A stretch of DNA of 64,000 nt. Source: Escherichia coli (GTDB lineage: Bacteria; Pseudomonadota; Gammaproteobacteria; Enterobacterales; Enterobacteriaceae). Positions within the stretch are counted from its first letter, which is position 1, and each line of letters begins with the position of its first letter. The DNA lies in the NCBI RefSeq assembly GCF_030013205.1, contig NZ_CP122648.1; one strand, given 5' to 3'. This document shows positions 8,706 through 11,700 of this stretch, in pieces. Position numbers: made by a program.

Positions 8706-11700
8706 TAAGCCTCAAAACAGTGCCGGATGGCGATGCTGTCCGGCCTGCTTATTAAGATTATCCACTTTTTATTTTTTCACTTTACCTCCCCTCCCCGCTG
8801 GTTTATTTAATGTTTACCCCCATAACCACATAATCGCGTTACACTATTTTAATAATTAAGACAGGGAGAAATAAAAAATGCGCGTACTGGTTGTTGAAGA
8901 CAATGCGTTGTTACGTCACCACCTTAAAGTTCAGATTCAGGATGCTGGTCATCAGGTCGATGACGCAGAAGATGCCAAAGAAGCCGATTATTATCTCAAT
9001 GAACATTTACCGGATATTGCGATTGTCGATCTGGGATTGCCAGACGAGGACGGTCTGTCACTGATTCGCCGCTGGCGTAGCAATGATGTTTCACTGCCGA
9101 TTCTGGTATTAACCGCCCGTGAAAGCTGGCAGGACAAAGTCGAAGTATTAAGTGCTGGCGCTGATGATTACGTGACTAAACCATTTCATATTGAAGAGGT
9201 GATGGCGCGAATGCAGGCATTAATGCGGCGTAATAGCGGTCTGGCTTCACAGGTCATTTCGCTACCCCCGTTTCAGGTTGATCTCTCTCGCCGTGAATTA
9301 TCTATTAATGACGAAGTGATCAAACTGACCGCGTTCGAATACACCATCATGGAAACGTTGATACGCAATAATGGCAAAGTGGTGAGCAAAGATTCGTTAA
9401 TGCTCCAACTCTATCCGGATGCGGAGCTGCGGGAAAGCCATACCATTGATGTACTGATGGGACGTCTGCGCAAAAAAATTCAGGCACAATATCCGCAAGA
9501 AGTGATTACCACCGTTCGCGGCCAGGGCTATCTGTTCGAATTGCGCTGATGAAAAAATTACTACGTCTTTTTTTCCCGCTCTCGCTGCGGGTACGTTTTC
9601 TGTTGGCAACGGCAGCGGTAGTACTGGTGCTTTCGCTTGCCTACGGAATGGTCGCGCTGATCGGTTATAGCGTCAGTTTCGATAAAACTACGTTTCGGCT
9701 GTTACGTGGCGAGAGCAATCTGTTCTATACCCTTGCGAAGTGGGAAAACAATAAGTTGCATGTCGAGTTACCCGAAAATATCGACAAGCAAAGCCCCACC
9801 ATGACGCTAATTTATGATGAGAACGGGCAGCTTTTATGGGCGCAACGTGACGTGCCCTGGCTGATGAAGATGATCCAGCCTGACTGGCTGAAATCGAATG
9901 GTTTTCATGAAATTGAAGCGGATGTTAACGATACCAGCCTCTTGCTGAGTGGAGATCATACGATACAGCAACAGTTGCAGGAAGTGCGGGAAGATGATGA
10001 CGACGCGGAGATGACCCACTCGGTGGCGGTAAACGTCTACCCGGCAACATCGCGGATGCCAAAGTTAACCATTGTGGTGGTGGATACCATTCCGGTGGAG
10101 CTAAAAAGTTCCTATATGGTCTGGAGCTGGTTTATCTATGTGCTCTCAGCCAATCTGCTGTTAGTGATCCCGCTGCTGTGGGTCGCCGCCTGGTGGAGTT
10201 TACGCCCCATCGAAGCCCTGGCAAAAGAAGTCCGCGAACTGGAAGAACATAACCGCGAATTGCTCAATCCAGCCACAACGCGAGAACTGACCAGTCTGGT
10301 ACGAAACCTGAACCGATTGTTAAAAAGTGAACGCGAACGTTACGACAAATATCGTACAACGCTCACCGACCTGACCCATAGTCTGAAAACGCCACTGGCG
10401 GTGCTGCAAAGTACGCTGCGTTCTCTGCGTAGTGAGAAGATGAGCGTCAGTGATGCTGAACCGGTAATGCTGGAGCAAATCAGCCGCATTTCACAGCAAA
10501 TTGGCTACTACCTGCATCGTGCCAGTATGCGCGGCGGGACATTGCTCAGCCGCGAGCTGCATCCGGTCGCCCCACTGCTGGACAATCTCACCTCGGCGCT
10601 GAACAAAGTGTATCAACGCAAAGGGGTCAATATCTCTCTCGATATTTCGCCAGAGATCAGCTTTGTCGGTGAGCAGAACGATTTTGTCGAGGTGATGGGC
10701 AACGTGCTGGATAATGCCTGTAAATATTGCCTCGAGTTTGTCGAAATATCTGCAAGGCAAACAGACGAGCATCTCTATATTGTGGTCGAGGATGATGGCC
10801 CCGGTATTCCATTAAGCAAGCGAGAGGTCATTTTCGACCGTGGTCAACGGGTTGATACTTTACGCCCTGGGCAAGGTGTAGGGCTGGCGGTAGCCCGCGA
10901 AATCACCGAGCAATATGAGGGTAAAATCGTCGCCGGAGAGAGCATGCTGGGCGGTGCGCGGATGGAGGTGATTTTTGGTCGCCAGCATTCTGCGCCGAAA
11001 GATGAATAAATATGTCCATACTTCACGCATTACGTTAAGCATCCGTTATAATCGGTTGCAGATACCAGCCTGTGGATGCTTAACATGGAATACCAACTCA
11101 CTCTTAACTGGCCCGATTTTCTTGAACGTCACTGGCAGAAACGTCCGGTGGTGTTAAAACGCGGCTTTAATAATTTTATTGACCCGATCTCTCCAGACGA
11201 GTTGGCGGGTTTGGCGATGGAAAGCGAAGTCGACAGTCGACTGGTCAGTCACCAGGATGGCAAATGGCAGGTCAGCCACGGCCCGTTCGAAAGCTACGAT
11301 CATCTCGGTGAAACTAACTGGTCATTGTTAGTGCAGGCAGTGAACCACTGGCATGAGCCGACCGCCGCGCTGATGCGACCGTTCCGTGAACTGCCGGACT
11401 GGCGTATTGATGACCTGATGATCTCTTTTTCCGTACCTGGCGGCGGCGTCGGCCCGCATCTCGATCAGTACGACGTGTTTATCATTCAGGGTACTGGTCG
11501 CCGTCGCTGGCGAGTGGGCGAAAAGCTGCAAATGAAACAGCACTGCCCGCACCCGGATCTGTTACAGGTTGATCCGTTCGAAGCCATCATTGATGAAGAA
11601 CTGGAGCCAGGCGATATTCTTTATATTCCGCCAGGATTCCCGCATGAAGGCTACGCGCTGGAAAATGCGATGAACTATTCCGTCGGTTTTCGCGCACCAA

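Follow-up and report, generated by a model that had tools for sequence, protein, structure and literature searches.

The 17 bp at positions 8800 to 8816 of the window, the whole 64-kb stretch of Escherichia coli DNA that was analyzed here, are almost certainly the PhoP box of P1, the proximal promoter of phoPQ, through which PhoP would positively regulate its own operon. Going by its sequence, this is a textbook element, which is already known and is unchanged from E. coli K-12. The upstream regions of phoP have already been published across genera (PMC2650801 Fig. S3; Zwir 2012 Table 1). The following elements were located in the region:

8722..8744, plus strand: intrinsic terminator hairpin of purB, a GC-rich stem of 10 pairs with a T-rich tail behind it
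8800-8816, plus strand: PhoP box, GGTTTATTTAATGTTTA, the sole exact consensus match in the window and equal to K-12
8829-8834, plus strand: -10 hexamer CATAAT of P1, 12 nt downstream of the box
8841, plus strand: putative transcription start of P1 (A), placed by homology to the K-12 start at -36
8841..8877, plus strand: 5' leader of 37 nt, with the Shine-Dalgarno sequence GGGAG at 8864-8868
8878..9549, plus strand: phoP, response regulator of 223 aa, 222/223 residues equal to K-12 PhoP (I44L)
9549..11009, plus strand: phoQ, sensor kinase of 486 aa, 485/486 residues equal to K-12 PhoQ (S138T)

The genes in the window follow the order bluF (3' end), bluR, ycgX, an IS200-type transposase gene, icd (minus strand), rluE, nudJ, mnmA, hflD, purB (7338-8708), phoP, phoQ and roxA, which is the purB-phoPQ neighbourhood of K-12 on the opposite strand. 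The purB hairpin comes straight after the purB stop codon (8708) and marks the upstream limit of the phoP regulatory region. The start of phoQ overlaps the stop of phoP at 9549, so that the two genes make up an operon. PhoP and PhoQ are both full length with one conservative change each compared to K-12, and phoP is annotated at this locus in the matching RefSeq genomes.

The box consists of the half-site GGTTTA (8800-8805), the spacer TTTAA (8806-8810) and the half-site TGTTTA (8811-8816) on the plus strand. The two half-sites form a direct repeat that is oriented towards the -10 hexamer. A direct hexamer repeat with a 5-nt spacer at this place had been predicted and was found as described; the coordinates hold, and only the quoted string, an 18-mer, is one base too long (c at 8817), a trivial off-by-one. 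Searching both strands of the window for (T/G)GTTTA-N5-(T/G)GTTTA gave one exact match, GGTTTATTTAATGTTTA, against 0.01 expected from dinucleotide-preserving shuffles. When up to two mismatches to KGTTTAN5KGTTTA were allowed, 22 matches were found in the 64-kb window (13.7 ± 3.6 expected). None of these relaxed matches has exactly one mismatch; there is therefore no family of near-perfect sites in the window, and the site at 8800-8816 stands alone. Judged by its exact consensus, strand, phasing, location and identity to K-12, the site is well beyond chance.

For scoring, position weight matrices were built from the DNase-footprinted PhoP boxes of Salmonella (Zwir 2012 Table 1), leaving out the phoP box itself to avoid circularity. 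With a matrix of the hexamers only (12 columns), the site reaches 16.35 of possible 18.21 bits, ranks first among about 128,000 positions and outscores 33 of the 37 footprinted sites. Among 100 random Markov sequences of 64 kb, 6 reached this score. A 19-column matrix from 37 sites also puts the box on rank 1 (15.32 bits), with the null sequence equal to it in 20 of 60 trials, and a 19-column matrix from 16 sites puts it on rank 8 with 10.56 bits, lower than every training site of its own set. The 19-column matrices were rejected as discriminators, because they are too degenerate or overfitted in the columns for spacer and flanks and random sequence often scores equally. The matrix scan proposed in the original prediction thus gave a divided answer, rank 1 with the hexamers only and a weak result at full width (rank 1 or 8). 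A matrix score by itself is a weak discriminator and would not prove the site.

The full-width Salmonella matrices give another sequence in the window as high a score as the PhoP box. It is the near-perfect palindrome TTATTAACCAATTGTTAAT at 33271-33291, located at the 5' end of the ndh ORF. This sequence is an inverted and not a direct repeat and probably serves as operator for a different regulator.

The geometry of the promoter was compared with that of characterized PhoP-activated promoters. P1 of K-12 is the proximal phoP promoter; it is positively regulated by PhoP, with its start at -36 and a 36-nt leader, as stated by Coornaert et al. 2013 (PMC3536696), who used this promoter and cite Kato 1999 (Kato, Tanabe and Utsumi) for it. 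Besides P1, a further start site of phoP that does not depend on PhoP is known. Between the end of the box (8816) and CATAAT (8829) there is a gap of 12 nt, CCCCCATAACCA, and the 3' end of the box lies 61 nt upstream of the ATG of phoP (8878). The hexamer at the -35 position (17-nt spacing) is TTTAAT, which has 3/6 matches to TTGACA. A scan with the sigma-70 consensus found no stand-alone sigma-70 promoter in 8600-9000, which fits the expectation for an activator-dependent promoter.

The K-12 leader of 36 nt (ACACTATTTT...) aligns to position 8841 of the window, which is the 7th nucleotide after the -10 hexamer. With 8841 as the equivalent of the start, the box extends from -41 to -25, with its centre at -33. 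The PhoP-dependent start of the window strain would thus be at about 8841, an assignment made by homology. The layout of the window reads ...cgct GGTTTA TTTAA TGTTTA cccccataacca CATAAT cgcgtt A cactattttaataattaagacaGGGAGaaataaaaa ATG. With the box lying across the -35 position and no consensus hexamer there, the layout is that of an activator-dependent promoter of class II. Promoters of architecture I are defined by one direct PhoP box that lies 12 nt upstream of the -10 hexamer and overlaps the -35 position (Zwir 2012, PMC3335776). Class II activation is predicted for promoters of this architecture and was demonstrated for mgtA (Zwir 2012, PMC3335776). The single box in direct orientation, 12 nt from CATAAT, agrees with this definition. 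The cataat-like -10 hexamer ahead of the ATG at 8878 was already part of the original prediction and was located at 8829-8834. Its assignment to the PhoP-activated P1 architecture was supported as well, since the region equals the characterized P1 of K-12 and its geometry has the values of Salmonella phoP.

The window shares the box, the 12-nt gap, CATAAT and the base at the start site with P1 of K-12. Salmonella enterica phoP, a promoter of architecture I (PMC3335776), has the same half-sites GGTTTA and TGTTTA in a single direct box. The distance of 12 nt from the box to the -10 hexamer, the 33 nt from the box centre to +1 and the overlap with the -35 position are also the same in both (PMC3335776 Table 1). 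The Salmonella box, TGGTTTATTAACTGTTTAT, differs in its spacer (TTAAC instead of TTTAA in the window) and in the 3' flanking base, and the leader has 34 nt in Salmonella compared to 37 nt in the window. The mgtA promoter, also of architecture I, shares the type of box and the 12-nt phasing. For mgtA, alpha-CTD-independent class II activation was shown in vitro, whereas it is predicted for phoP. In contrast to the 264-nt regulatory leader of mgtA, the phoP leader is short.

Autoregulation of phoP through a PhoP box was reported to be conserved across enteric species, and Salmonella without the PhoP box of phoP cannot grow in low Mg2+ (Perez et al. 2009, PMC2650801). Positive autoregulation by PhoP in low Mg2+ is a trait shared with phoPQ of Yersinia pestis (Perez et al. 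2009, PMC2650801). However, Yersinia has no PhoP box directly upstream of phoP, and its box is found upstream of the preceding gene, y1795 (PMC2650801). In the window, unlike in Yersinia, the box is located immediately upstream of phoP and is separated from the preceding gene by the purB terminator.

The sequence of the window is base-for-base identical to K-12 MG1655 from 8766 to 8872, a stretch that begins 34 nt upstream of the box and includes the Shine-Dalgarno sequence. Of five substitutions further upstream, one comes just after the purB stop codon, three lie between the purB stop and the hairpin, and the fifth, at 8765, lies between hairpin and box. Of 5426 complete E. coli genomes, 5425 contain a 65-bp core (8786-8850), in identical form in 2630 cases and with a difference at one position in nearly all others. 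The whole 169-bp intergenic region between purB and phoP is likewise present in 5425 of the 5426 genomes, many of them with 100% identity and with phoP annotated alongside. Seven strains picked across the range of core identity were aligned: the window strain, K-12, O157:H7, BL21(DE3), 83972, an echidna isolate and P276M. None of the seven shows any change in the 17-bp box or the -10 hexamer. Differences among the strains affect a C-run ahead of the box, a single base within the 12-nt gap and the A-run that precedes the ATG.

Strain P276M (NZ_CP044293.1) carries a 9-bp deletion between the box and the -10 hexamer, equivalent to window positions 8817-8825. It is the only one of the 5425 genomes with less than 95% identity over the 65-bp core. 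The deletion would destroy the phasing of box and -10 hexamer and should abolish activation of P1 in this strain.

Two small differences to K-12 were observed at phoP. The A-run at 8872-8877 has one A more than in K-12, O157:H7, BL21, 83972 and two further strains, which makes the leader 37 nt long compared to 36 nt in K-12. The intergenic allele with the extra A is identical in many other E. coli strains. In K-12, the small RNAs MicA and GcvB pair with the leader region of phoP, MicA at -15 to +11 (PMC3536696), and the extra A sits within this MicA pairing region. The second difference concerns AsphoP, whose antisense promoter is found on the minus strand within phoP at 9160-9172. AsphoP and its promoter were validated in K-12, where it spans 1190165-1190508 and no function was shown for it (Lejars et al. 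2022). In window coordinates, this span runs from 9160 down to 8816. The promoter's -10 hexamer, CATAAT in K-12, reads CGTAAT in the window, due to an A-to-G change at -11 (9171) which is synonymous in phoP. The AsphoP promoter is probably weak or inactive in the window strain.

According to the proposed mechanism, low periplasmic Mg2+ would be sensed by PhoQ, resulting in phosphorylation of PhoP. A PhoP dimer would then bind the two (T/G)GTTTA half-sites at their distance of one helical turn. Located at -41 to -25, the box would substitute for the missing -35 hexamer, and PhoP would recruit sigma-70 RNA polymerase to CATAAT by class II activation. Transcription from about 8841 would run through the 37-nt leader into phoP and phoQ and would thereby cause positive autoregulation. 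The PhoP dependence, the response to Mg2+, the start site and the class II mechanism proposed for the window strain are carried over from the literature. From the unchanged cis element and the full-length PhoP (I44L) and PhoQ (S138T) we infer, with good support, that autoregulation is intact in the window strain, as the original prediction had assumed.

No feature of the sequence speaks against this assignment, but other explanations of the repeat have to be weighed against it. It could be a chance match in AT-rich sequence or an inert relic, with phoPQ driven only by the upstream, PhoP-independent promoter P2. Full-width matrix scores of the observed size do occur by chance in 64 kb, and a PhoP-independent start site of phoP is known. 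However, this explanation is highly improbable in view of an exact consensus with 0.01 matches expected, the correct strand and 12-nt phasing to the -10 hexamer, the identity to the characterized K-12 promoter, the invariance in E. coli and the half-sites kept in Salmonella. Regulators of the OmpR family have a common layout of direct repeats about 11 bp apart. The repeat could for this reason mainly serve another member of the family, e.g. PmrA or RstA, instead of PhoP. Against this, both half-sites are the exact PhoP hexamer, the TTTAAT-like element is present only once without a repeat at 11 bp, and the literature assigns the phoP box to PhoP; a main role for such a regulator is just as hard to believe.

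Even with the repeat assigned to PhoP and the cis element intact, changes outside the box could make the loop quantitatively different from that of K-12. The extra A at 8872-8877 lies between the Shine-Dalgarno sequence and the ATG, in the region of the phoP mRNA (-15 to +11) with which MicA pairs. The base change from CATAAT to CGTAAT affects an antisense promoter that is validated in K-12, and PhoP and PhoQ carry one amino-acid change each, I44L and S138T. On the other hand, the 169-bp intergenic sequence of the window is identical in many unrelated E. coli and is thus a widespread natural allele, the two amino-acid changes are conservative, and AsphoP lacks a demonstrated function. Such a quantitative difference is therefore considered unlikely, and the PhoP box of P1 with its intact autoregulation remains the preferred explanation.

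The original prediction had also pointed out that iraM appears to be missing next to icd. This is the case, and within 1978-2950 an insertion sequence was found in its place:

2190..2899, minus strand: IS200C, single copy of 710 bp, which replaces ymgK-iraM between ymgL/ycgX and icd
2297-2806, minus strand: tnpA ORF within IS200C

The K-12 order after icd is prophage e14, the icd remnant icdC, iraM, ymgK, ymgL, ycgX and bluR. Homology of the window to K-12 covers bluR-ycgX-ymgL up to 2189 and comes back at 2900 with the 3' flank of icd. An 862-bp segment of K-12 with ymgK and iraM is missing in the window, which has the 710 bp of IS200C instead. A tblastn search with K-12 IraM as query revealed no IraM homologue in the whole 64-kb window (best E-value 2.1). 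The related protein IraL is 58.9% identical to IraM and is encoded in the potB island of CFT073 (PMC4045071). At this level of identity, the negative search excludes IraL from the window, too. No iraL was found at the potB location, where potABCD are contiguous in the window.

Related genomes give an indication of how iraM was lost. A group of porcine ETEC and O139:H1 genomes matches the window at 100.0% identity over 12 kb, with the exception of one indel. The 18 closest genomes listed are at least 99.8% identical over 12 kb, and the two examined in detail carry iraM. ETEC1748 has the order ycgX-ymgL-IS200C-ymgK-iraM-IS200C-icd, in which the two transposase genes share a strand, and its two IS200C copies form a 761-bp direct repeat with 99.3% identity. 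ETEC4068 contains only the left IS200C copy, together with iraM. The window is 100% identical to the ETEC1748 locus minus 1570 bp, i.e. one repeat and the intervening segment. Homologous recombination between two IS200C copies is the most economical explanation for the removal of iraM. An arrangement with one IS and no iraM was found in none of the best-ranked 30 genomes, in which all best matches need two pieces. An assembly artefact was considered as the cause of the deletion and is unlikely. The window reads through an IS that is present about 20 times in related genomes, as would be expected from a long-read or finished assembly.

The iraM gene could be detected in 3937 of 5426 complete E. 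coli genomes, so that about 27% are without it, and E. coli strains without both iraM and iraL were already described (PMC4045071). The loss is unremarkable for the species, although it appears to be recent in the window lineage. Right downstream of icd, a sequence of about 50 bp with the icd terminator hairpin was observed (window 2899-2946). K-12 repeats this icd flank with 84% identity beyond iraM-ymgK (about 26445-26494 of the comparison segment L001). This suggests that the iraM segment is bounded by a duplicated icd flank and resembles an old insertion into the icd attachment site.

Expression of iraM is controlled by activation of PhoQ/PhoP according to 10.1101/2023.01.07.523045, which cites Bougdour 2008, and the same source describes its induction by Mg2+ starvation (10.1101/2023.01.07.523045). 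Judged at the locus within the 64 kb, it is reasonable to assume that the output from PhoPQ through IraM to RpoS is missing in the window strain. Recombination between IS200C copies may have removed iraM, with iraL absent at potB, in a recent IS-driven rewiring of the regulon, so that PhoPQ would still autoregulate and sense Mg2+ but would no longer stabilize RpoS through an anti-adaptor of the IraM type. We regard this scenario as a whole as evenly balanced between right and wrong.

The PhoP box itself matters little beyond its correct annotation, as the autoregulatory site of a central regulator for Mg2+, virulence and the envelope. What is specific to the strain is limited to the putative deletion of iraM through IS200C and a few minor allelic differences. 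If true, a recent IS-driven loss of iraM separates the window strain from the 18 closest genomes listed. Loss of iraM through IS200C predicts that the induction of RpoS in low Mg2+ would be missing in this isolate.
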